Of a stretch of DNA of 44,740 nucleotides, positions 5,218-40,717 are shown piece after piece (position 1 is the first letter of the stretch; the number at the start of each line of letters is the position of its first letter). The position numbers and the translations under genes were made by a program. The stretch comes from Escherichia phage McMelon. The DNA lies in sequence record OR896838.1; one strand, written 5' to 3'. The notes beneath the pieces were generated by a model, which worked only from the letters and a program-made list of their open reading frames with translations, searched no databases and was not told the origin of the DNA.

Positions 5218-5246
5218 TTTTATGTCCTCGTTGTTGGTGTGCAACC

Positions 5247-5275
5247 AATATATGCAACCAATACGCGGATTGCAA
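5247..5275 (-). promoter_or_regulatory. sigma70-like promoter (TTGCAA-17-TATATT) for 4453..5217
   Basis: Minus-strand reading: TTGCAA, 17-nt spacer, TATATT, then GGTTGCACACCAACA and RBS; same -10 and downstream 21-mer as the promoter at 39364..39392. Confidence 0.45.
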
Positions 5276-10514: not shown

Positions 10515-10828
10515 TTGAGGCGGCGCGACGCTTTTATGGCCCGCCGCCACCCTCCGAAGATTTAGCCGCAAGTTTATGGGGCGCGGCCCCCGAAGATGTT
10601 TGTCCACCTGTTGCGCTGTGGCCCGACAACGCGAAGGTAGTCGCAGTCTTCACAGATTGCTCCACGCAATGGCGCACCGGATTTGGTGGCGCATACGGCA
10701 TCGACTACGGCGTGCTGGAGTGGTTATTTAAGATGCACGGTATCGAAAACGAACAGCGCGCGTTTAAAGATATCAAGCTAATGGAACGAATAGCGCTTGA
10801 TGAGATGGCGCAGCAGAACCCCGCATAA
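10505..10828 (+). CDS. tail assembly chaperone frameshift extension (lambda T-like; made as fusion with 10152..10510 by -1 frameshift)
   Basis: Heptamer A AAA AAC at 10505..10511 followed by TAA; the -1 frame stays open about 105 codons to TAA at 10826..10828; canonical G/GT arrangement. Confidence 0.5.
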   Translation, partial: KKLIEAARRFYGPPPPSEDLAASLWGAAPEDVCPPVALWPDNAKVVAVFTDCSTQWRTGFGGAYGIDYGVLEWLFKMHGIENEQRAFKDIKLMERIALDEMAQQNPA

Positions 10829-11140
10829 TGAAGCGGGACGTCCCGCTTTGTCCCGCCCTGTAAAACCGCATATCTAATCACTTTCATTGCATAAACTCAA
10901 AGCGGGACAGGCGGGACGTCCCGTTTTGTCCCACCCATGAAATGTGCATACCTATTCGAATTTCGTGCATAAAACAAGCGGGACAGAAAGCGGGACAGAC
11001 AAGGGGCGGGACAAAGCGGGACAGCACCCCGTCCCCGCCAGTGCTGCCGCGGTTTTCAGCCGATCGGGACAAGCGGGACAAAGCCCAGTCTTTCAGACTA
11101 GACGGGGGTCAACGGCCCCCCTCGTCTGAGACTGAATAAG
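10829..11140. repeat. GCGGGACA iteron / palindrome array ending in GC-rich hairpin (copy A)
   Basis: At least 10 copies of GCGGGAC or its complement, including perfect palindrome GCGGGACGTCCCGC (10833..10846); terminal hairpin GACGGGGGTCAACGGCCCCCCTCGTC; about 150 bp nearly identical to 39030..39210. Confidence 0.7.
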
Positions 11141-11157
11141 GTTTGTTTGAAATTCGC

Positions 11158-11166
11158 TGATACAAT
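11158..11166 (+). promoter_or_regulatory. candidate extended -10 promoter (TGaTACAAT) upstream of tape measure gene
   Basis: TGnTACAAT-type element about 37 nt upstream of the TMP start; no good -35. Confidence 0.3.
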
Positions 11167-11202
11167 GACAGTCGGCAACTGCATAAAAAAGGGGACTGCA
11201 TA

Positions 11203-15267: not shown

Positions 15268-16008
15268 ATGCTAACGAAAAAGGTAAAACGCGATATCGCC
15301 GCACATGTCGCGGCATGTCTGCCGGAAGAAGCCTGCGGGCTGGTCGTCATGGTGGGCCGTAAGCAAGTATTCGTCCCGTGCCTGAACGTCTTCGAAGACC
15401 CGACCGGCGTGCGCTCGCGCAAAGACGCGTTTACAATTAGCGATATGGCCTGGATGGATGCCGAGGATATGGGCGACGTCGTGCGCGTAGTCCACTCGCA
15501 CCCCGGTCAGCGCGATCTAGCCCCGTCATTGGGCGACGTTAACGGATGCAACGGCAGCGGCGTCGTCTGGACCATCACTAACGAATATGGCGACTTTATC
15601 GAGATCGACCCGGAAGACCCGCCGCTGGTAGGTCGCCGATTTGTTCTCGGAATTACGGATTGTTACGGCCTCGTTATGGACTGGCACAAAAAGCAGGGCG
15701 TAAACCTGCCAGACTTCCGTGTACCATACAACTGGTGGGAGACAGGCGAAAACCTGTATATGGACAATTGGTATGGCGCGGGCTTCCGGGAGTGTGAGGA
15801 GAATACGCCAGGGGCTATGGTCATCATGCAGATTAGCGCGCCCGTGCCTAACCATGCCGGAATCTACCTTCCGGGCAACCAATTACTACACCATATCTAC
15901 GGTAGCCTGTCGAGCGTGATCCCCTTCCGGGCGGGATTTTTCCGCGACAATGTGGTTAAATGGGTACGTCATAAAGACCTACCGGGGAATATCACAGAAT
16001 GGCAATGA
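15268..16008 (+). CDS. tail assembly protein K-like (MPN/JAMM + NlpC/P60 domains)
   Basis: HSHPG...SLGD JAMM-like motif and downstream Cys-containing DCYGLV as in lambda gpK. Confidence 0.75.
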   Translation: MLTKKVKRDIAAHVAACLPEEACGLVVMVGRKQVFVPCLNVFEDPTGVRSRKDAFTISDMAWMDAEDMGDVVRVVHSHPGQRDLAPSLGDVNGCNGSGVVWTITNEYGDFIEIDPEDPPLVGRRFVLGITDCYGLVMDWHKKQGVNLPDFRVPYNWWETGENLYMDNWYGAGFRECEENTPGAMVIMQISAPVPNHAGIYLPGNQLLHHIYGSLSSVIPFRAGFFRDNVVKWVRHKDLPGNITEWQ

Positions 16009-25243: not shown

Positions 25244-25461
25244 TTTAATTCCGCCATTAAATTTTCACGTACAATACGGGCCGAGAATGCGTCGCACACA
25301 AGATGGCAACGCGCCGTCATGACAAGCCAGCCAGTTAGGTCAAGGCCCAGCAATTGATGAGGTTGGCTTGCGCGCCTTACTTTATTTCCAGGGAAAACCT
25401 GGTAGCGTTTAATTATTTCATCCACGACGCGAGGACTTCGGTCGACGACTAAGATATTCAT
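25240..25461 (-). CDS. hypothetical protein
   Basis: 73 aa; stop overlaps downstream start; overlaps 3' end of methyltransferase gene so start uncertain. Confidence 0.3.
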   Translation of the reverse strand: MNILVVDRSPRVVDEIIKRYQVFPGNKVRRASQPHQLLGLDLTGWLVMTARCHLVCDAFSARIVRENLMAELK

Positions 25462-25954
25462 TTAATTCACCTTCGCTCATTATTTCGATTTGTGCGCTGC
25501 CGTTTGGCGGCACTTCGTCAAAGATTATCAACTGCTGGCACTTGTTATTGCTCGGCCCGACTTCACCGGTTACAGCGTGTATAAATCGGATACGCCAGTC
25601 CAGAAGAATTATCAGGTTTGCAGTCTTCCGGGCCAACCGCGCCCACTTCGTCGACGTGTCCTGATTCAGCAGCATGACAGTCCGGCGTCCGTGCGCTGCA
25701 CACTCGACCCACGGCAGCGGATCGGAATACGGCGGGTTGCACCACTTCCACCCTTTCAACTCTGACCAGTCCACATCGAGCGCGCTGTGCTCTGCCGTGA
25801 AGTAACGCGGTAGCAGGTGGTTGGCGTCGCTTGCCGCCATATCGTAACGGAATCGGTATTTCCGTCGAAGCGGTTTAAATAAAGCTGGCGGCGTGCGCCA
25901 GCTATCTTTTTGCTCACTCTCCGTCATTCTGCGGGTCCAGTGCGTATAGGGCAA
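25418..25954 (-). CDS. DNA N6-adenine methyltransferase (phage Dam-like)
   Basis: 178 aa; WRTPP near N-terminus, DMAAS and catalytic NPPY motifs; alternative start at 25927. Confidence 0.75.
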   Translation of the reverse strand: MPYTHWTRRMTESEQKDSWRTPPALFKPLRRKYRFRYDMAASDANHLLPRYFTAEHSALDVDWSELKGWKWCNPPYSDPLPWVECAAHGRRTVMLLNQDTSTKWARLARKTANLIILLDWRIRFIHAVTGEVGPSNNKCQQLIIFDEVPPNGSAQIEIMSEGELNEYLSRRPKSSRRG

Positions 25955-26378: not shown

Positions 26379-26402
26379 CGTGTTGTCTCCAAGTATTAAA
26401 AA

Positions 26403-26423
26403 GGGTGTCCAAACCGGACACCC
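26403..26423 (-). terminator. hairpin with downstream U-run (terminator/attenuator overlapping promoter start site)
   Basis: GGGTGTCC-ggtttg-GACACCC followed on the minus strand by TTTTAATA; sits at the predicted +1 of the 26426..26454 promoter. Confidence 0.4.
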
Positions 26424-26425
26424 TC

Positions 26426-26454
26426 AATATAATGCAACCAATATGATTATGCAA
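26426..26454 (-). promoter_or_regulatory. sigma70-like promoter (TTGCAT-17-TATATT)
   Basis: Minus-strand TTGCAT, 17-nt spacer containing ATTGGTTGCAT, TATATT. Confidence 0.45.
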
Positions 26455-26459
26455 CCAAT

Positions 26460-26783
26460 TTACGAATAAAAATTTGGGTCGCGTGCAACGTCTACTAGAT
26501 ACAGGTTACTCATGCGATTGCCGTAGTGCCCCGGTGTGCGCTGGCGGCACACAACGGCGAAGCCTGGCGGAATTGTATTGCCCGTCTCGATAATCCACGC
26601 CACGCGTGCGCCAGACAGCGTCTTGCCGTTGTATTCGATGCGCGTGCCACCATCGGCAGTGTTAAGGTTGCCAATCTTACAGCCTGTGGACTTCAGGCGA
26701 ATGACACCGGTCTTGCTGTCGTAGGAAAAAAGCTGATTGGTCATTGCCACTGAAAAGTCGATTGCGTCGAATGCAGTATTCAT
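26460..26783 (-). CDS. hypothetical protein, HNH_3/NUMOD-like (possibly degenerate homing-endonuclease-like)
   Basis: 107 aa; pattern GxxxEYNGK...ARVAWIIETGNTIPPGFAV...NLYLV resembles HNH_3-type proteins, but no His-Asn-His catalytic triad was recognised by eye. Confidence 0.4.
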   Translation of the reverse strand: MNTAFDAIDFSVAMTNQLFSYDSKTGVIRLKSTGCKIGNLNTADGGTRIEYNGKTLSGARVAWIIETGNTIPPGFAVVCRQRTPGHYGNRMSNLYLVDVARDPNFYS

Positions 26784-36075: not shown

Positions 36076-36105
36076 ATGATAGATTGGTTGCAGGATGGGT
36101 GTCAA
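36076..36105 (-). promoter_or_regulatory. strong sigma70-like leftward promoter (TTGACA-18-TATCAT)
   Basis: Minus-strand perfect -35 TTGACA, 18-nt spacer containing CTGCAACCAATC, -10 TATCAT; heads the leftward operon. Confidence 0.55.
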
Positions 36106-36281: not shown

Positions 36282-36611
36282 ATGAATGTAAACGACGCAA
36301 TCGAAATGTTAACGAAGACTGTTTGCAGTGAGACAAGCCGGTCGTGGGCATACACCGATGCCGTGGGGGCTGTGTTATTTGAAATCGAACGACTGCGGCT
36401 TACCGAAAAAGAATTGCGCGCCAGGCTGGAACTACTCAACGGTACAGCAGCAAGCAAGCTGCAAAAACACAATGAAGAAATGGAAGAATACAAAAAGCAG
36501 GTTATCCGTTTGCGCGCCGAGGGTAAATCATGGGCGATGATTGCCGAGTTGACCGGGATTAATCAGAGCACAGTGCGCTCCTGGGTACGCAATAATAAAA
36601 CTTCTAAGTAA
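36282..36611 (+). CDS. HTH DNA-binding protein (putative transcriptional regulator)
   Basis: 109 aa; helical N-terminus; C-terminal helix-turn-helix SWAMIAELTGINQSTVRSWV; first gene of rightward operon. Confidence 0.6.
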   Translation: MNVNDAIEMLTKTVCSETSRSWAYTDAVGAVLFEIERLRLTEKELRARLELLNGTAASKLQKHNEEMEEYKKQVIRLRAEGKSWAMIAELTGINQSTVRSWVRNNKTSK

Positions 36612-36621
36612 GGCCACGGCA

Positions 36622-38886
36622 ATGAGCTTGATTAAATTCGCTGTAACAAAACCCGCTAAAAAAGGCGAAAAAGCCAGGGCGGAAAACTTCCAGATGACGA
36701 CCGATGAGTTTTTCGAATTTATCAAAGATGCGAAAGAAATCTCCTCGGTGCATATCAACAAGACGGAAGATAGAGCCGAGTATGCGCGCCGCAAGCGTAA
36801 GGCCGATGGCATCGTGGCGTATACCAGTGACGGATTGCGTCGTAAGACCAGTGCGGTGGACCGCTCGATCCTGTTCTTTGATATTGACCGCACCGACACC
36901 CGCACCCTGCGCCGCTGCCGTAAGGCGTTCATCGACGCGGGACTGGAACATGTATTTCACACCACAACCGGCGACCGCCACCCGCTGAAAGGTGGCACGC
37001 GTTGCGCTCGTTTCCTGGTGCTCACCGACAAGCCTGTACCGGCGGAAGACCTGGGCCGCGTACAGTATGCACTGTTACACCAACTGGGCCTGTCAGATGT
37101 GGACTTCGATGATTGTACGAAAGACACAAACCGCCTTATGTACCTGCCACACCAGCAGTCCGTTGTTAAGTGTCACTACGGCAAACGTGCCCGCGTCCGT
37201 CGTCTGCTTCGCCTGGCGGATAAGCTGGGAGTGGAAAAAGAGGAAGTACGACGCGAACTGACCCAGGGCGATGACGGCGTTGCGGACGGTATTCTGGATT
37301 GGTGCTTCCAGGCAGGATTCGAACCGCTGTCGTCCGGTCGTGGCTATGAAGTGCCATGCCCGAACGAACATCTGCACAGTGGTGAAGGGTCCACCGCTAT
37401 CATGGTTAAGGATGGCGAGATCCGTTTCAAGTGTATGCACACCGGCAACGAGTGCTGTTCCGAACTGAACAGACACCAGCACCTGGCGCTACGTCTTATC
37501 GGGATCCCGGACCACTTGAACGTCGAACCGCACAACATGTCACGTAAGCAAATCGCCGCCATCCTTCCGGGACTGGACGATGAGGAAGTGGAATCGTGCT
37601 ATGAACATATCGTTGATGCGGTCGGAGACGGCGACGAGTACGGCGGATGTACAGATGCAGACCTGGACAACGAGCCGGTTGCGCTGTTCAGTAAGCACGA
37701 CCCGATCATCGAGGGGCTGATTAACTTCAAATCGACCTGGTATCTTGCTGGCGGGTCGAACATCGGTAAATCGTTCTACGTGCTGGGCCAGATGGCGTCA
37801 GTATCTGCCGGTATTCCGTTCGGCGGCGCGAAGGTCGTCCAGTGCCACAACTTCTATTTCGACGCGGAAGGTGGTGAAGCCTCCAACCAGCGTAAGGAAG
37901 CATTGCAGATCAAATATGAGCACGACCTGGACAAGCTGCACATTATCGATCTGCAGTCACGCGGCTGGGATATCACCAGCAAATCCGGCTTGCGTGAAGT
38001 TATCAGCTTTATCAACCGCACCGCTAACGGCGAGCCGGTTGGCCTGGTGGCGTTCGACTCACTCAACCAGACTGTCGCGTTGCGGTCAGCCGATGCTAAA
38101 CCGTTCGACGAGAACAACGCCAGCGATATGGGCGAAGTGGTCAAAGCGCTGAAGGCTATTGCGGAAAACACAGGCGGCAGTGCGGGAGTCATCCACCACC
38201 CGGCGAAAGGTGCAAACGGCAGCAGATCTCCCCGCGGGTCCGGCGCGCTGCATGGTGCTGTCGATTCCGCGTTCTTCCTGGAGCAACCGGACGACAATCA
38301 GCCGGGCCAATTGAACCTGTACCATGAGAAGGCACGTAACGGCATCAAGCAAGCGCCGCGCGGCTTCGTTCTGCTTAAGTGCAAGGTTAAGGTGGATCTC
38401 CGCAAGTCAGAGGCGTTCGAATCGCACCAGTCCACCAGCACCGGGCCTGATTTCGGTGATGTGGTTGCAGGATGGGACGTCAAGCCGATCGCATCAACGC
38501 CACGCGACGAGACTCTTTACCTCGTACCTGTCGCCCTGGCACCGTTCGCTATTGAGCAGGCGAAGGCCGCGGGTAAGGCAGCAGTTAAGGAAGAGAACCC
38601 CGCAGGACCTCGCAACGAAAAAGAGAAAGTGCTTTATGCGGCGCTGGAAAAACTGATGGAAGATAACCCGGACCATACCGGATTCAGTAAATCGGCAATC
38701 GTCCGCCAGGCTGGACTTGCGAAAGGTGGCACATCGACGAAGGCAATAGACGATATGGTCGAGCGCGGCGTGCTCGGTTTCTATACAGATCCGCACACCG
38801 GGGCCATCTATGGGTCATCGAATATCGTCATCAAAACGAATATACCCATCACGCTTTCGGCGACCGACGATGATTTAAAAGATTAA
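36622..38886 (+). CDS. DNA primase-polymerase (AEP-type) fused to P-loop ATPase/helicase domain
   Basis: 754 aa; N-terminal acidic motif ILFFDIDR (DxD) typical of prim-pol; central Walker A GGSNIGKS. Confidence 0.8.
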   Translation: MSLIKFAVTKPAKKGEKARAENFQMTTDEFFEFIKDAKEISSVHINKTEDRAEYARRKRKADGIVAYTSDGLRRKTSAVDRSILFFDIDRTDTRTLRRCRKAFIDAGLEHVFHTTTGDRHPLKGGTRCARFLVLTDKPVPAEDLGRVQYALLHQLGLSDVDFDDCTKDTNRLMYLPHQQSVVKCHYGKRARVRRLLRLADKLGVEKEEVRRELTQGDDGVADGILDWCFQAGFEPLSSGRGYEVPCPNEHLHSGEGSTAIMVKDGEIRFKCMHTGNECCSELNRHQHLALRLIGIPDHLNVEPHNMSRKQIAAILPGLDDEEVESCYEHIVDAVGDGDEYGGCTDADLDNEPVALFSKHDPIIEGLINFKSTWYLAGGSNIGKSFYVLGQMASVSAGIPFGGAKVVQCHNFYFDAEGGEASNQRKEALQIKYEHDLDKLHIIDLQSRGWDITSKSGLREVISFINRTANGEPVGLVAFDSLNQTVALRSADAKPFDENNASDMGEVVKALKAIAENTGGSAGVIHHPAKGANGSRSPRGSGALHGAVDSAFFLEQPDDNQPGQLNLYHEKARNGIKQAPRGFVLLKCKVKVDLRKSEAFESHQSTSTGPDFGDVVAGWDVKPIASTPRDETLYLVPVALAPFAIEQAKAAGKAAVKEENPAGPRNEKEKVLYAALEKLMEDNPDHTGFSKSAIVRQAGLAKGGTSTKAIDDMVERGVLGFYTDPHTGAIYGSSNIVIKTNIPITLSATDDDLKD

Positions 38887-38961
38887 ATTCTGCGCGCATT
38901 GGTTGCCGATATGGGAATTCCCATATCGTTAGAAGATTAAATTTTGCGCGCATTGGTTGCC
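38876..38961. repeat. direct repeat - 22-bp perfect palindrome - direct repeat structure (candidate origin/operator)
   Basis: 31-bp direct repeats A(A/G)AAGATTAAATT(C/T)TGCGCGCATTGGTTGCC at 38876..38907 and 38930..38961 flanking CGATATGGGAATTCCCATATCG (38907..38928); third ATTGGTTGCC at 38986..38996. Confidence 0.6.
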
Positions 38962-39029
38962 ATTTTGAGTGTTTTTATCTGGTCGTATTGGTTGCCGTGT
39001 AGTGTAAATATAGTGAATAGTTATGCAGT

Positions 39030-39210
39030 TTTATTGCATAAAGCAAGCGGGACAAAAAGCGGGACAAACAAGGGGCGGGACAAAGCGGGACAGCACCCCT
39101 GTCCCGCCCCGGATGACGCGGCTTCCAGAGGAGCGGGACAGGCGGGACAACTCCCAGTCTTTCAGACTAGACGGGGGTCAATGGCCCCCCTCGTCTGAGA
39201 CTGAATAAAA
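39030..39210. repeat. GCGGGACA iteron / palindrome array ending in GC-rich hairpin (copy B)
   Basis: Near-identical to 10970..11140: same order of GCGGGACA units, GGCGGGAC...GTCCCGCC inverted repeat and terminal hairpin (loop differs by one base). Confidence 0.7.
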
Positions 39211-39363
39211 TCCGGGTATTGCAAAATACACGGCAGCATGATGCGAATTGCGGTCGTCGATGAACTAGGCAACCAATGCGGGTTGTATTATGCTGAGTGA
39301 AAAATGCGGTTTGCAGTCACAGCAGATAGCGATCAGCTTTTTCATGCGCGTGATTAATATTGG

Positions 39364-39392
39364 TTGCACCCACCCTGGCACCCTGCTATATT
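39364..39392 (+). promoter_or_regulatory. sigma70-like promoter (TTGCAC-17-TATATT) for rightward early ORFs
   Basis: TTGCAC, 17-nt spacer, TATATT, then GGTTGCACACCAACA and RBS GAGGAC; -10 plus downstream 21-mer identical to the 5247..5275 promoter. Confidence 0.5.
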
Positions 39393-39420
39393 GGTTGCAC
39401 ACCAACATGAGGACCGAACA

Positions 39421-39732
39421 ATGCGAGCATTAATCTGGAATTACACAATGGCGGTGGCGAAGCTGAACGAAGCGAAGGCACTAAACGGCAACGTAGACGA
39501 CGCGCGCCAGTTAGCCGCGCTGGCACACCAAGCTATAATGTGCGCCTTCGACGAAATGGACGCCTGTCTGGAAGGGCCAGAGTCCGGGCCGCTGCGCAAG
39601 GCAGTCCACGAATATGCGCTTGCGTTCTCCGATGAGCGCCTGGCGTATCGCTTCGGGATCGGCGAGACGGCAGTGACAAACGTCGCCCGGATTAAAGCCC
39701 AGCGCGAACTATTTGCCCAGCTTGCGAAATAA
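39421..39732 (+). CDS. hypothetical early protein
   Basis: 104 aa from ATG with GAGGA RBS; no domain recognised. Confidence 0.5.
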   Translation: MRALIWNYTMAVAKLNEAKALNGNVDDARQLAALAHQAIMCAFDEMDACLEGPESGPLRKAVHEYALAFSDERLAYRFGIGETAVTNVARIKAQRELFAQLAK

Positions 39733-39741
39733 GGGGTCAAA

Positions 39742-40011
39742 ATGGGCCGTAGACGAGCTAAACAGCTTTCGTGGCATATTCCCCTACATTGCATACGAAT
39801 ATGGGCTGAGAATGCGAATGAGGGGGATTCTGTATTCTGGTGCTATCGCGATGATGTGAAGCCGTTAACGCAGACTCGCTACTTGCACCAGTTCGCAGCA
39901 CAACACGATTTCAGGGTGCGGACTTCCTTGCAACCAATGGGAATACGTATTACATTACGCCGGAAGCCCGCCATTGAGCGGGTAGGCAAACACTGGAGAC
40001 TGAGCAAATGA
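39742..40011 (+). CDS. hypothetical protein
   Basis: 89 aa, basic, RBS AGGGG. Confidence 0.45.
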   Translation: MGRRRAKQLSWHIPLHCIRIWAENANEGDSVFWCYRDDVKPLTQTRYLHQFAAQHDFRVRTSLQPMGIRITLRRKPAIERVGKHWRLSK

Positions 40012-40181
40012 ACAAACAAACCGAGTTATTCGAGAAGTGGCAAAGCAAGACCACGCGAATAATTTATTTTTTGACCCAGGAAACAAACGGCAACGTCACG
40101 ATATTACACCCTAAGAGTGGTCTGAGTCGCACTATTTCGCGTAGCACACTGATTTGTAACTACAGGAAACTGGAAAAATGA
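40008..40181 (+). CDS. small hypothetical protein
   Basis: 57 aa ORF below track threshold; ATG overlaps upstream stop and its stop overlaps the downstream ATG. Confidence 0.35.
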   Translation: MNKQTELFEKWQSKTTRIIYFLTQETNGNVTILHPKSGLSRTISRSTLICNYRKLEK

Positions 40182-40717
40182 AACTGATATTCCGCAATAA
40201 GCATAACGGGCGATTCCTTACCCCGATCGAAGTGCTGCCGAACTATGTGCGCATGTACCATGAGCCGAGCGACCGCGTATTCTGGTACAAGAAATACGGC
40301 CTACATGAACATTTGCAGGTTGTGCATCACGACGTGCGGGTCGGGGATGTGCTGCGTGATGCGCGTGACGGGTCGCTGTTAGCGGTGCTCCGCGTTAGCA
40401 CGGACGGCGTTATGCTGCGCAGTGGTAAAACACAACGCGGCGTTCTGCTCACGGGCCTGGTGAATTACGCCCGCGTAGGCCGTAACTATAAACTTAAGCG
40501 CCCTGGTGTAGTGGCGAAAGAGATCACCCGTACGGAACACCCATATACCAAATACAACGAGCGCAAGGTGCGCGAGCATATCGACAACGCCAGGGCGCAA
40601 GCTGCCGCTATGATTCAGGCCGGTGATGACGCAAAGCGCTTTGGCATTGGCGTGCTTCTGGTATACCCTGACGGCAGCATGAAGTCTACCGATCCGCGCG
40701 GGGTCGTTCTGAGATGA
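40178..40717 (+). CDS. hypothetical protein
   Basis: 179 aa; no recognisable motif. Confidence 0.5.
   Translation: MKLIFRNKHNGRFLTPIEVLPNYVRMYHEPSDRVFWYKKYGLHEHLQVVHHDVRVGDVLRDARDGSLLAVLRVSTDGVMLRSGKTQRGVLLTGLVNYARVGRNYKLKRPGVVAKEITRTEHPYTKYNERKVREHIDNARAQAAAMIQAGDDAKRFGIGVLLVYPDGSMKSTDPRGVVLR

Follow-up and report, generated by a model that had tools for sequence, protein, structure and literature searches.

DnaA boxes are 9-bp asymmetric sites (TTATCCACA) that are clustered at oriC and scattered in DnaA-regulated promoters. The C1 operators of phage P1 are asymmetric 17-bp sites distributed over numerous operons of that phage, among them the lytic replicon. For the primase-helicase alpha of P4 and the initiator G38P of SPP1, a DNA-binding domain recognises short repeats present in two distant clusters and, in the case of SPP1 oriL/oriR, one of the repeat clusters falls within the late region. 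Few E. coli phages are isolated as often as Dhillonviruses, which figure in the BASEL collection, in therapy-candidate studies, and in work on defence systems. Our literature search on Dhillonvirus promoters, regulators or origin, on the motif strings, and on the eiAU repeats found nothing. The homologous loci of Sodalis phage SO-1 are already annotated as repeat_region "region A" and "region B" (direct, inverted, and palindromic repeats, region B being noted as similar to region A), and in none of the GenBank records examined is the dispersed box described below, or its association with promoters, annotated.

The window analyzed here, i.e., the whole 44,740-nt stretch of OR896838.1 (Escherichia phage McMelon), is a complete HK578/SO-1-like Dhillonvirus genome. 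It carries a short asymmetric box, ATTGGTTGC, and two arrays of another repeat, GCGGGACA, one of which (region B) follows the primase-helicase gene. Like DnaA boxes, the McMelon box occurs in both orientations, clusters near moderately A+T-rich DNA at a probable origin, and is dispersed in promoter regions, where its occupancy would repress transcription. Unlike DnaA boxes, its sequence is unrelated, region B holds no DnaA-box consensus, and the primary initiator site is more likely to be a second repeat family, which is lineage-specific. The many asymmetric sites, single or paired, in either orientation, overlapping promoters and with one beside a replication function, also recall the P1 C1 operators; however, P1 is a temperate phage with a known repressor, whereas Dhillonviruses are virulent, the McMelon box is half as long, and four of its copies lie outside any promoter. 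The candidate parallel to P4 ori/crr and SPP1 oriL/oriR would be the GCGGGACA regions A and B rather than the ATTGGTTGCC boxes, although no sequence similarity of the McMelon primase to P4 alpha was detected. The analysis provides a set of nine predicted box-bearing promoters, a candidate two-site origin, and a conserved 9-bp box that links both. This could be of use for phage engineering (choice of insertion sites, avoiding or exploiting the regulator), for the interpretation of transcriptomes, and for finding a new regulator; it has little bearing on general principles, operators, iterons, and dual-use boxes being familiar already.

Anatomy and history of the repeats 3' of the primase-helicase gene

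The features of the locus are the following.

36622..38886, plus strand: replicative primase-helicase gene, 754 aa
~38599-38856, plus strand: winged-helix domain at the primase-helicase C-terminus (residues ~660-745)
38875..38907, plus strand: direct repeat 1 (DR1), 33 nt, including the last three primase codons (LKD) and the stop
38898-38907, plus strand: box copy 1, ATTGGTTGCC, at the 3' end of DR1
38907..38928: perfect 22-bp palindrome CGATATGGGAATTCCCATATCG, 11-nt arms without spacer, EcoRI site at the center
38929..38961, plus strand: direct repeat 2 (DR2), 33 nt, opening with decayed primase C-terminal codons, TTAGAAGATTAA
38952-38961, plus strand: box copy 2, ATTGGTTGCC, at the 3' end of DR2
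38962..39044: moderately A+T-rich spacer
38984..38996, plus strand: box copy 3, CGTATTGGTTGCC, 35 nt past the DR2 copy
39013-39027: GTGAATAGTTATGCA, inside the A+T-rich spacer
39013..39208, plus strand: region B core
39023-39041: small hairpin TATGCA-n7-TGCATA, inside the A+T-rich spacer

The original prediction described two direct repeats flanking a perfect 22-bp palindrome immediately after the primase gene, with a third half-site and an AT-rich stretch downstream. This anatomy is confirmed, the two 33-nt repeats being identical at 31/33 positions with a start-to-start distance of 54 nt, and the half-site and the AT-rich stretch mapping to 38984-38996 and 38962-39044, respectively. The placement after the gene needs one correction, in that DR1 begins inside the coding sequence, which ends at 38886. 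Chance falls far short of explaining a 33-nt repeat at 94% identity within 54 nt, and CGATATGGGAATTCCCATATCG exceeds every other perfect palindrome of the window in length, arms of at least 11 nt arising in only 3 of 200 windows simulated with a first-order Markov model. The spacer contains 57 to 73% A+T in 30-nt windows versus ~46% for the genome, and no 13-mer-type repeats were seen within 38962-39044. GTGAATAGTTATG is also present 3' of the primase gene in Salmonella phage SaI_NFG_5577. A terminator scan of 38400-40200 found no intrinsic terminator of the primase operon, and the palindrome is directly followed by GTTAGAAG, which has no T-run.

Other annotations of the region were considered. 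An ORF resembling gp51 of JLBYU60 across 39260-39421 was rejected, since in the window a stop at codon 3 breaks it, and this interval was thus handled as noncoding. The GC skew minimum, at ~35.5-36 kb, was dropped as an origin marker because the skew tracks the direction of transcription and so mirrors gene orientation. No Rfam family reached its gathering score in the whole window (the sole weak match in 38800-39500 is a chance microRNA, E = 0.44), and searches for tRNA and tmRNA genes found none.

Comparison with relatives indicates that the repeat-palindrome-repeat arose by a recent duplication of 54 bp, through which the 9-bp box gained its third copy, and is not a conserved unit. DR1 and the palindrome together form the 54-bp segment, which is present in 81 of ~158 records of relatives and missing from HK578 and SO-1, the latter thus differing from McMelon in having neither DR1 nor the palindrome. 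DR2 is the ancestral copy, found in nearly all relatives. Ioannina has a different 32-nt version of the segment and only a 7-nt remnant of the palindrome. The palindrome is absent from HK578, SO-1, and six other loci (L005, L006, L009, L010, L016, and L018) and imperfect in five (L002, L007, L012, L013, and L017); in 5 of the 8 loci that carry it, the symmetry is broken by single uncompensated changes. Dyad symmetry, as expected of a palindromic operator or a cruciform, is hence not kept in relatives. Because it is missing from about half of the 158 relatives and its symmetry is often broken without compensation, the repeat-palindrome unit is dispensable, which argues against the functional unit first proposed.

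The number of boxes after the primase gene is itself polymorphic (3, 2, or 1), with about half of the relatives having two and one Dhillonvirus (L011/L154) having a single box. Copy 3 is the sole copy found in every Dhillonvirus examined, with an invariant 60 nt between it and the first CGGGAC repeat downstream. A lineage at 68% identity (L160) carries two boxes at the same place in inverted orientation, GGCAACCAAT. Across these alignments, the position of the box is conserved, its orientation not.

A dispersed box and its predicted promoters

The asymmetric core ATTGGTTGC(C), 9 to 10 bp long, has 17 exact copies genome-wide versus ~0.3 expected. When one mismatch is allowed, the count rises to 27, a value not reached in any of 100 shuffles (13 +/- 3.9 copies). 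Core copies not mentioned in the original prediction lie at 39268-39280 (inverted), at 39359 and 39390 (direct), and at 39930 (inverted, genic), with about ten others elsewhere in the genome. JLBYU60, HK578, and Ioannina retain the same box sites despite intergenic flanks that have diverged to ~77% identity.

At nine dispersed intergenic loci, a box or a pair of boxes lies within -40 to +10 of a high-scoring predicted sigma-70 -35/-10 pair on the gene-sense strand, placed over the -35, in the spacer, or over -10/+1, and in either orientation. All these promoters are consensus predictions. The main box sites, together with the inverted copy at 39268, which overlaps no good promoter, are the following.

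5241..5262, minus strand: box pair in the spacer and over -10/+1 of the predicted Nmad5 gene promoter, TTGCAA-17-TATATT
21339, 24763/24775, 29395/29407, 33214/33230, 42528/42551: similar promoter-core boxes
26434..26459, minus strand: box pair over the -35 and in the spacer of a predicted promoter, TTGCAT-17-TATATT
36083..36091, plus strand: box in the spacer of a strong leftward early promoter, TTGACA-18-TATCAT (-35 at 36105-36100, minus strand)
39268..39280, minus strand: inverted box GGCAACCAATGCG, with CGC...C flanks as in copies 1 and 2, at a fixed distance after the array
39359..39398, plus strand: predicted promoter of the next operon, -35 TTGCAC (39364-39369), 17-nt spacer, -10 TATATT (39387-39392), with boxes over the -35 (39359-39367) and over -10/+1 (39390-39398)

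The HK578 record annotates a predicted promoter over the homolog of the 36083 box, and the arrangement of the next-operon promoter and its boxes is kept in JLBYU60, Ioannina, and HK578. A stricter promoter scan found no promoter within 38400-40200. The box thus recurs at predicted promoter cores while the flanks drift, as expected of an operator, and a protein bound to a promoter-core box would exclude RNA polymerase, so the box would behave as an operator at the nine dispersed loci and at 39359/39390. Copies 1 to 3 and the 39268-39280 copy, on the other hand, overlap no good promoter on either strand (best scores of 5.9 to 7.6 versus 9.4 to 14.5), and these four copies have distinctive CGY...C flanks in common.

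Two other readings were rejected. A sigma-54 promoter (TGGCAC/TTGCA near 39375) has the wrong spacing, and its TGGCAC is not conserved in relatives. The box is not a -35 element either, given that second copies lie in spacers and over -10/+1 and that reversed copies lie inside promoters having their own TTGAC -35.

Because the same box is found in nine predicted promoters and beside the probable origin, it is the box that matters at this locus, and not the large repeats or the palindrome. The noncoding DNA 3' of the primase-helicase gene has the look of an origin or control region, and its repeats are very probably protein-binding sites. Part of the origin reading is thereby retained, with support from the repeat array found at this place in every homologous phage and from the box that keeps its spot despite orientation flips. 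Origin specificity of the core box, in contrast, does not stand, most of its 17 copies being in promoter cores.

Lineage-specific arrays and the primase winged helix

Downstream of the boxes, region B is an element of ~200 bp whose core is more than 90% identical to a second one in the window.

10944..11139, plus strand: region A core, the second GCGGGACA element, flanked by the tail chaperone and tape-measure genes
39047, 39059, 39075, 39085, 39133, 39142 (direct) and 39100 (inverted): seven GCGGGACA repeats of region B
about 39154-39205: long G/C hairpin of region B, which has another hairpin with 11-nt arms

The boxes bracket the region B core, copies 1 to 3 lying before it and the inverted copy ~280 nt downstream. 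No ATTGGTTGC box lies near region A; since that array stands without boxes, they are not obligatory partners of the array.

Comparison of 42 related loci showed an array of 8-mer repeats 3' of the primase gene in every lineage, of a sequence particular to that lineage. Across about ten lineages, the array type (GCGGGACA, TTGCGAGT, TGTCGGAA, and others) follows the primase C-terminal domain and is independent of the upstream XRE protein, identical XRE proteins being associated with three different arrays, twice over. The box behaves otherwise, as TTGGTTGC is unchanged in lineages whose primase winged helix is only 21 to 35% identical to that of the window, and its comparison with each primase domain revealed no co-variation. 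Scans of region B for the DnaA-box and IHF consensus sequences were negative.

Because the arrays co-vary with the primase winged helix, they are better candidates for origin iterons than the boxes, and the region B core is the best candidate. We infer that recognition of the GCGGGACA iterons falls to the C-terminal winged helix of the primase-helicase. The N-terminal domain of the primase, which the original prediction proposed to test for binding, would then be the wrong target and ATTGGTTGCC probably the wrong repeat, since it is the arrays, not the box, that co-vary with the C-terminal domain. This domain was modeled with an alignment, the AlphaFold single-sequence model being unusable (pLDDT 37). 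A homology search with the C-terminal domain alone returned 2 fragments, and a sequence search of the primase against solved structures gave nothing useful and no P4 alpha match.

The TTGGTTGC box accompanies post-primase arrays in three lineages. In VLCpiS11a, boxes are found at the primase stop, after the array, and within the second array cluster. In Edwardsiella phage eiAU, 7 boxes lie 3' of the primase gene, within 300 bp and beside A+T-rich DNA, and 5 others lie before the tape-measure gene, both clusters adjoining this phage's own CGCCCCG repeats. Both phages carry the same box in the same promoter architectures. Altogether, conserved copies of the box are found in phages of Escherichia, Shigella, Sodalis, Klebsiella, and Edwardsiella and are absent from E. 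coli phage K1ind1 and the Salmonella relatives. A scan of viral contigs for tandem boxes recovered mostly unrelated 27-nt coding repeats in low-GC phages, which were discarded. A similar scan of bacterial genomes found tandem boxes at about the chance rate and none in Enterobacterales, and no host regulon built on tandem boxes emerged.

Competing explanations of the post-primase boxes

We tentatively propose a model in which copies 1 to 3 would be accessory boxes for a putative regulator, DnaA-box-like, beside the probable origin, an explanation that we consider possible and prefer to the others. The functional elements would be the three copies of the recognition box, and one sequence-specific factor, acting on the dispersed boxes, would shut down the early and middle promoters. 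The same factor would also occupy the promoter-less cluster at the origin border, where it may assist or gate initiation or, alternatively, insulate the origin and the adjacent promoter from transcription of the primase operon. Region B core would be the origin proper, its GCGGGACA iterons being bound by the winged helix of the primase-helicase, and the 33-nt repeats and the palindrome would be by-products of the 54-bp duplication with no function of their own. The eiAU boxes, numerous enough to be iterons themselves, count against this model, as do the box-free array of region A, the lack of co-variation between the box and any primase domain, and the negative results of the stricter promoter scan and of the searches for a box reader and for a host regulon. 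The eiAU boxes favor, instead, a direct reading of the ATTGGTTGCC repeats and palindrome as origin iterons bound by an initiator or by the primase-helicase, as does the situation of the McMelon boxes directly 3' of the primase-helicase gene and beside a moderately A+T-rich stretch, with three direct copies within 100 nt, from the primase stop onward (fewer in about half of the relatives) and a copy number as variable as in iteron arrays. We nevertheless consider this reading rather unlikely: the box is not limited to origins as iterons would be, nine other loci being in promoter cores; it stays constant across divergent winged helices while the arrays change with the domain; one Dhillonvirus manages with a single box; the palindrome is not conserved; and region A has no box. 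The primase as binder of ATTGGTTGCC is thus disfavored, the box co-varying with no primase domain and the neighboring GCGGGACA-type arrays doing so. A regulator encoded by the phage could also account for the boxes without any replication role, the post-primase cluster being an extra operator or roadblock in a Cro-like shut-off. The candidate is a 109-aa HTH protein (HTH_23/sigma-70 region 4-like; 36282..36611, plus strand), whose gene opens the rightward early operon, where Cro is classically encoded. Within the genus, its C-terminal HTH hardly varies, the N-terminus being variable, and the promoter of its own operon, TTGACA-17-TAGTTT (36222), is box-free, whereas the leftward promoter and eight others carry boxes. 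However, this protein is restricted to Dhillonvirus-like lineages, and no homologue was detected in VLCpiS11a or eiAU, which have the same box and encode an unrelated XRE protein before the primase gene; the XRE proteins do not track the box either. The HTH operator of the original prediction is weakened accordingly, and this protein is a candidate box reader but not the favored one, the whole reading being unlikely.

Reading of the boxes at promoters and origin by a host factor, either an Enterobacterales DNA-binding protein or RNA polymerase, would explain their presence in phages of five host genera without any co-occurring phage regulator. We know of no E. coli regulator whose consensus matches the box, and neither the DnaA and IHF scans of region B nor the chance-level occurrence of tandem boxes in bacteria, outside Enterobacterales, supports this explanation; moreover, K1ind1 and the Salmonella relatives do without the box, and boxes over -10/+1 would hand control of phage promoters to the host. 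We judge it improbable. Even less credit is given to a neutral duplication, by slippage or repair, of a promoter-type box in recombination-prone DNA, or to a pac or recombination site. The polymorphism of the 54-bp segment, with its different version in Ioannina, and the decaying copy of coding sequence held by DR2 speak for neutrality, but every Dhillonvirus retains one box or more at a constant spacing from the array, L160 retains it inverted, and boxes turn up again next to the arrays of two other lineages. As for packaging, terS (44169) lies 5.2 kb downstream of the locus, and a motif dispersed over more than 10 loci is not unique as a pac or cos site would be, which makes this role unlikely. 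A close relative packages by a headful mechanism, with no mapped pac site (PMC9022532). The record ends of WFI and PTXU06, which fall inside region B, were rejected as physical termini: they are contiguous without terminal repeat, the records are simply linearised there, and the source paper reports no terminus mapping.

A broader version of the preferred model is also improbable, in which TTGGTTGC would be the box of a master factor common to Dhillonvirus, the VLCpiS11a group, and Eiauvirus. This phage-borne counterpart of DnaA would have a double action, licensing an origin in two parts (the conserved boxes and the lineage-specific primase iterons, at two sites of the genome) and turning off about nine early and middle promoters; the box reader could be a protein without recognisable DNA-binding domain, or the switch could operate via methylation by a Dam-type methyltransferase. 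A comparison of proteomes by presence or absence yielded no DNA-binding candidate for the box reader; the sole gene co-occurring with the box encodes a small Dam-type methyltransferase, found in 3/3 box-positive and 0/2 box-negative lineages.

Anatomy and spread of the repeat-palindrome-repeat structure

The McMelon sequence is a complete 44.7-kb Dhillonvirus genome, linearised at terL, of an HK578/SO-1-like virulent siphophage of E. coli, and its segment 36600-40200 shares 89-96% identity with >130 Dhillonvirus records. All genes of its relative JLBYU60 could be placed on the window: rightward structural genes at 1-23 kb, leftward replication and modification genes at 23-36 kb and, from 36.3 kb, rightward genes again (a 109-aa HTH protein, a 754-aa primase-helicase, small genes, lysis genes, and terS). 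For the 109-aa protein (36282-36608), Pfam gives just a C-terminal HTH (HTH_23, sigma-70 region 4-like), so its names in public records ("Gam nuclease inhibitor," "transposase," "resolvase") look like annotation drift; it exists as two alleles ~77% identical, which differ solely in the N-terminal half.

Elements at the end of the primase gene
38875-38907, DR1, 33-nt direct repeat, 31/33 identical to DR2
38907-38928, perfect 22-bp palindrome, between DR1 and DR2
38929-38961, DR2, 33-nt direct repeat, 31/33 identical to DR1
38984-38996, third core copy CGTATTGGTTGCC, past DR2

The original prediction of two direct repeats around a perfect palindrome, followed by a third core copy and an A+T-rich stretch (here moderately so), was confirmed, with repeats of 33 nt. 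Its location downstream of the primase gene also held for most of the structure, except for the start of DR1, which lies in the final three codons and stop of that gene. All other palindromes in the genome are shorter, and just 3 of 200 Markov simulations produced arms this long.

We compared the sequence directly 3' of the primase stop in 18 relatives. DR1, palindrome, and DR2 occur together in 8 of the 18 loci, including the window; a single repeat without palindrome occurs in 9, including the type species HK578 and SO-1, and an EP23-like locus lacks even the single repeat and retains the third core copy alone. A 50-nt probe over the palindrome junction matched 81 of the ~158 Dhillonvirus records matching the region. 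Moreover, the palindrome carries uncompensated single changes in 5 of the 8 loci that have it, phage Ioannina has a different 32-nt version with a palindrome remnant of just 7 nt, and at its 5' end DR2 repeats the C-terminal codons of the primase in decaying form (TTA GAA GAT TAA). This patchy presence, broken symmetry, variant version, and codon decay mark the structure as a recent duplication of 54 bp that took in the gene end and one box, with 21 to 22 nt of palindromic filler. The large repeats and palindrome are thus not the functional unit. The proposal of an origin or operator is partly supported, as to the neighborhood, the more likely functional unit being, on this sequence comparison, a short dispersed box instead of the duplicated structure.

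The dispersed box and predicted promoters

The core of the repeats, a 9- to 10-bp box (ATTGGTTGC), has 17 exact copies in the window versus ~0.3 expected and ranks second among the 9-mers of the genome; with one mismatch there are 27 copies versus 13 ± 3.9 in shuffles, none of which reached 27. Nearly all copies are intergenic, and many form tandem pairs at 12- to 31-nt spacing. JLBYU60, HK578, and Ioannina carry 13 to 17 copies at the same loci, despite divergence to ~77% identity in the neighboring region B. Two copies lie within genes: an exact box at 39930-39938 (-), in gene 39742-40008, is kept in all four complete Dhillonvirus genomes compared, and the one at 15875 is absent from the other three. 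We rejected as unrelated the 27-nt tandem arrays containing ATTGGTTGC in low-GC phage contigs (L040, L068, and similar IMG/VR loci), since each unit encodes a 9-residue repeat belonging to a large protein. The commonest 9-mer of the window, AACGGCAGC (18 sites, counting both strands, e.g., 3206, 12861, and 29043), falls in coding regions at the sites placed on the gene map and is also among the top 9-mers of Klebsiella phage VLCpiS11a and E. coli Kagunavirus K1ind1; we take its abundance to be codon or amino acid bias and not a signal.

A relaxed, position-weighted scan of the gene-sense strand found, in every box-bearing intergenic region scanned, a strong predicted -35/-10 pair with its box or boxes at about -40 to +10.

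Predicted promoters with boxes (position of the -35 element, strand, elements, boxes)
5275 (-), TTGCAA-17-TATATT, boxes in spacer and at -10/+1
21342 (-), TTGCAA-17-AATACT, box at -35
24785 (-), TTGCAA-17-TATATT, reversed boxes at -35 and in spacer
26454 (-), TTGCAT-17-TATATT, boxes at -35 and in spacer
29410 (-), TTGCTG-17-TATAGT, boxes at -35 and in spacer
33252 (-), TTGACC-17-TAAATT, reversed boxes flanking -10
36105 (-), TTGACA-18-TATCAT, reversed box in spacer
39364 (+), TTGCAC-17-TATATT, boxes at -35 and -10/+1
42521 (+), TTGACT-18-CATACT, reversed boxes after -35 and after -10

At the site homologous to 36105, the HK578 record itself annotates a predicted promoter. A stricter scan of 38400-40200 returned no promoter, because TTGCAC fits the -35 consensus at 3 of 6 positions. 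Two strong predicted consensus promoters of the divergent early region, 36222 (+), which would drive the HTH and primase genes, and 36209 (-), have no box. Since box position and orientation vary within the polymerase footprint, the dispersed boxes have the appearance of operators, not of promoter elements or upstream activator sites.

Some promoters showed further features. In phage PTXU06 (L022, 1-110), the downstream-operon promoter reads ATTGGTCGCACACCGAC where the window has ATTGGTTGCACACCAAC (39390-39406): a T-to-C change in the box is paired with an A-to-G change 8 nt away, preserving a GTYG...CRAC dyad, a single case that could be chance. At 26379-26462 (-), a terminator-like hairpin (GGGTGTCC-ggttt-GGACACCC-TTTTT) directly follows the predicted 26454 promoter, whose predicted start would lie in the 5' arm, a compact terminator/promoter overlap. 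ORF 39260-39421, a hypothetical protein in JLBYU60 (gp51) and SO-1 (gp49), overlaps a predicted promoter and an inverted box; in the window it is cut short by TAG at its third codon, and it probably does not represent a gene.

The post-primase arrays and their boxes

The region B segment 39013-39208 contains four direct GCGGGACA repeats at 12-, 16-, and 10-nt spacing, an inverted copy forming an 11-nt-arm hairpin, two further copies, and a long G/C hairpin, and it folds well below shuffled sequences (z = -4.1). It is >90% identical to 10944-11139 in region A, between the tail chaperone and tape-measure genes, and the SO-1 GenBank record already labels both loci as repeats under these names. 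An Rfam search gave no match for the element, and region B has no DnaA-box or IHF consensus.

Full-length primase-helicase homologues defined about ten lineages, and in each the gap after the primase gene (loci L147-L188) carries a pile of its own 8-mer: GCGGGACA in Dhillonvirus, TTGCGAGT in the VLCpiS11a group, GGGGGAGA in the Salmonella SaI_NFG_5577 group, and TGTCGGAA, CGGACGGA/CGGACAAA, GGCGGACA, AGGGATAA, or GGGATGAA in others. In VLCpiS11a (L025, 5035-5279 and 35818-35913), the array also has a second site, in the structural module. The primase is most variable in its last ~95 residues (21-35% identity versus 62-69% in the helicase core), a winged-helix domain that clusters by array type. 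Candidate readers can be told apart by a natural swap: the same XRE protein precedes primases bearing three array types in L172, L186, and L187, and another XRE protein, likewise identical throughout, does so in L182, L183, and L188; in each case the arrays track the primase C terminus and not the XRE protein.

In the relaxed scan, the boxes at 38898, 38952, and 38987 and the inverted box at 39268-39280 overlapped no credible promoter on either strand; these four share flanks (CGY 5' and C 3') absent at promoters. In relatives, box 3 lies a constant 60 nt ahead of the first CGGGAC repeat and the inverted box is always 3' of the array, the boxes thus bracketing a segment of ~280 nt. At L160, the Dhillonvirus-like locus that diverges most (primase 68% identical), two GGCAACCAAT boxes stand at the same place in opposite orientation; a kept place with free orientation points to a protein-binding site.

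Candidate readers of the box

The box form TTGGTTGC is frequent (0.4 to 0.7 per kb) in three groups only, namely, Dhillonvirus-like phages (primase 68-99% identical), the VLCpiS11a group (49%), and Edwardsiella phage eiAU (45%), and at chance level in the other 42-45% lineages, SaI_NFG_5577, and K1ind1. VLCpiS11a and eiAU have window-like promoter architectures (e.g., TTGCAT-17-TATAGT, where the second box lies within the spacer or covers -10/+1). VLCpiS11a has boxes at the primase stop, after the array, and within the second array cluster; eiAU has seven 3' of the primase gene and five ahead of the tape-measure gene, both clusters adjoining the CGCCCCG repeats peculiar to eiAU, and the two sites share a 52-nt stretch at 88% identity.

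We tentatively favor the three boxes at the primase end as accessory binding sites bordering a composite origin/control region, regions A and B together being a candidate two-site origin. One factor would read both these border boxes and those where the nine predicted promoters can be occluded, the same logic as that of DnaA boxes and of the dispersed P1 C1 operators, and the primase's own iterons would be the adjacent GCGGGACA repeats. That the boxes are themselves the primary iterons is unlikely: the primase, originally proposed as their binding protein, is probably not their reader, since the box co-varies with none of its domains, whereas the adjacent arrays follow its C terminus. A pure operator of the Dhillonvirus HTH protein seems rather doubtful; the regulator encoded before the primase gene is of the HTH_23 type in Dhillonvirus and an unrelated XRE protein in the other lineages, and the box tracks neither. 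A host-factor site is quite improbable; tandem boxes, searched in one genome per bacterial species, gave scattered chance-level matches, none in Enterobacterales. Least probable is a neutral by-product or a pac site. The packaging role raised originally is unlikely given a multicopy motif, a locus 5 kb from terS, and headful packaging in a close relative (PMC9022532). The element would be of a known kind, an operator or accessory origin box. Our literature search found nothing on promoters, repeats, or origins in these genera. For a phage genus in wide use and mechanistically unstudied, these data offer a map of regulation and replication that is concrete and testable.

In a proteome comparison of three box-positive and two box-negative genomes, the sole nonstructural protein in 3/3 and 0/2, respectively, was a small Dam-type adenine methyltransferase (window 25421-25927, L025 18506-18997, and L310 13298-13843), a co-occurrence in too few lineages to mean much.

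The ~195-bp element with seven GCGGGACA repeats and hairpins occurs at 39013-39208 and within 10826-11202, and region A has an 18-bp perfect palindrome (10831-10848) made of two inverted repeats (AAGCGGGACGTCCCGCTT). GTGAATAGT(TATG) forms the left margin of the region B core (39013-39027) and might represent another conserved box, possibly an operator of XRE/Cro type or an origin-border element; it occurs twice just 3' of the primase gene in SaI_NFG_5577 (L026, 16272-16305) and, in K1ind1 (L189, 31878 and 31923), in the spacer of a TTGACA-17-TATATT promoter after the primase gene.
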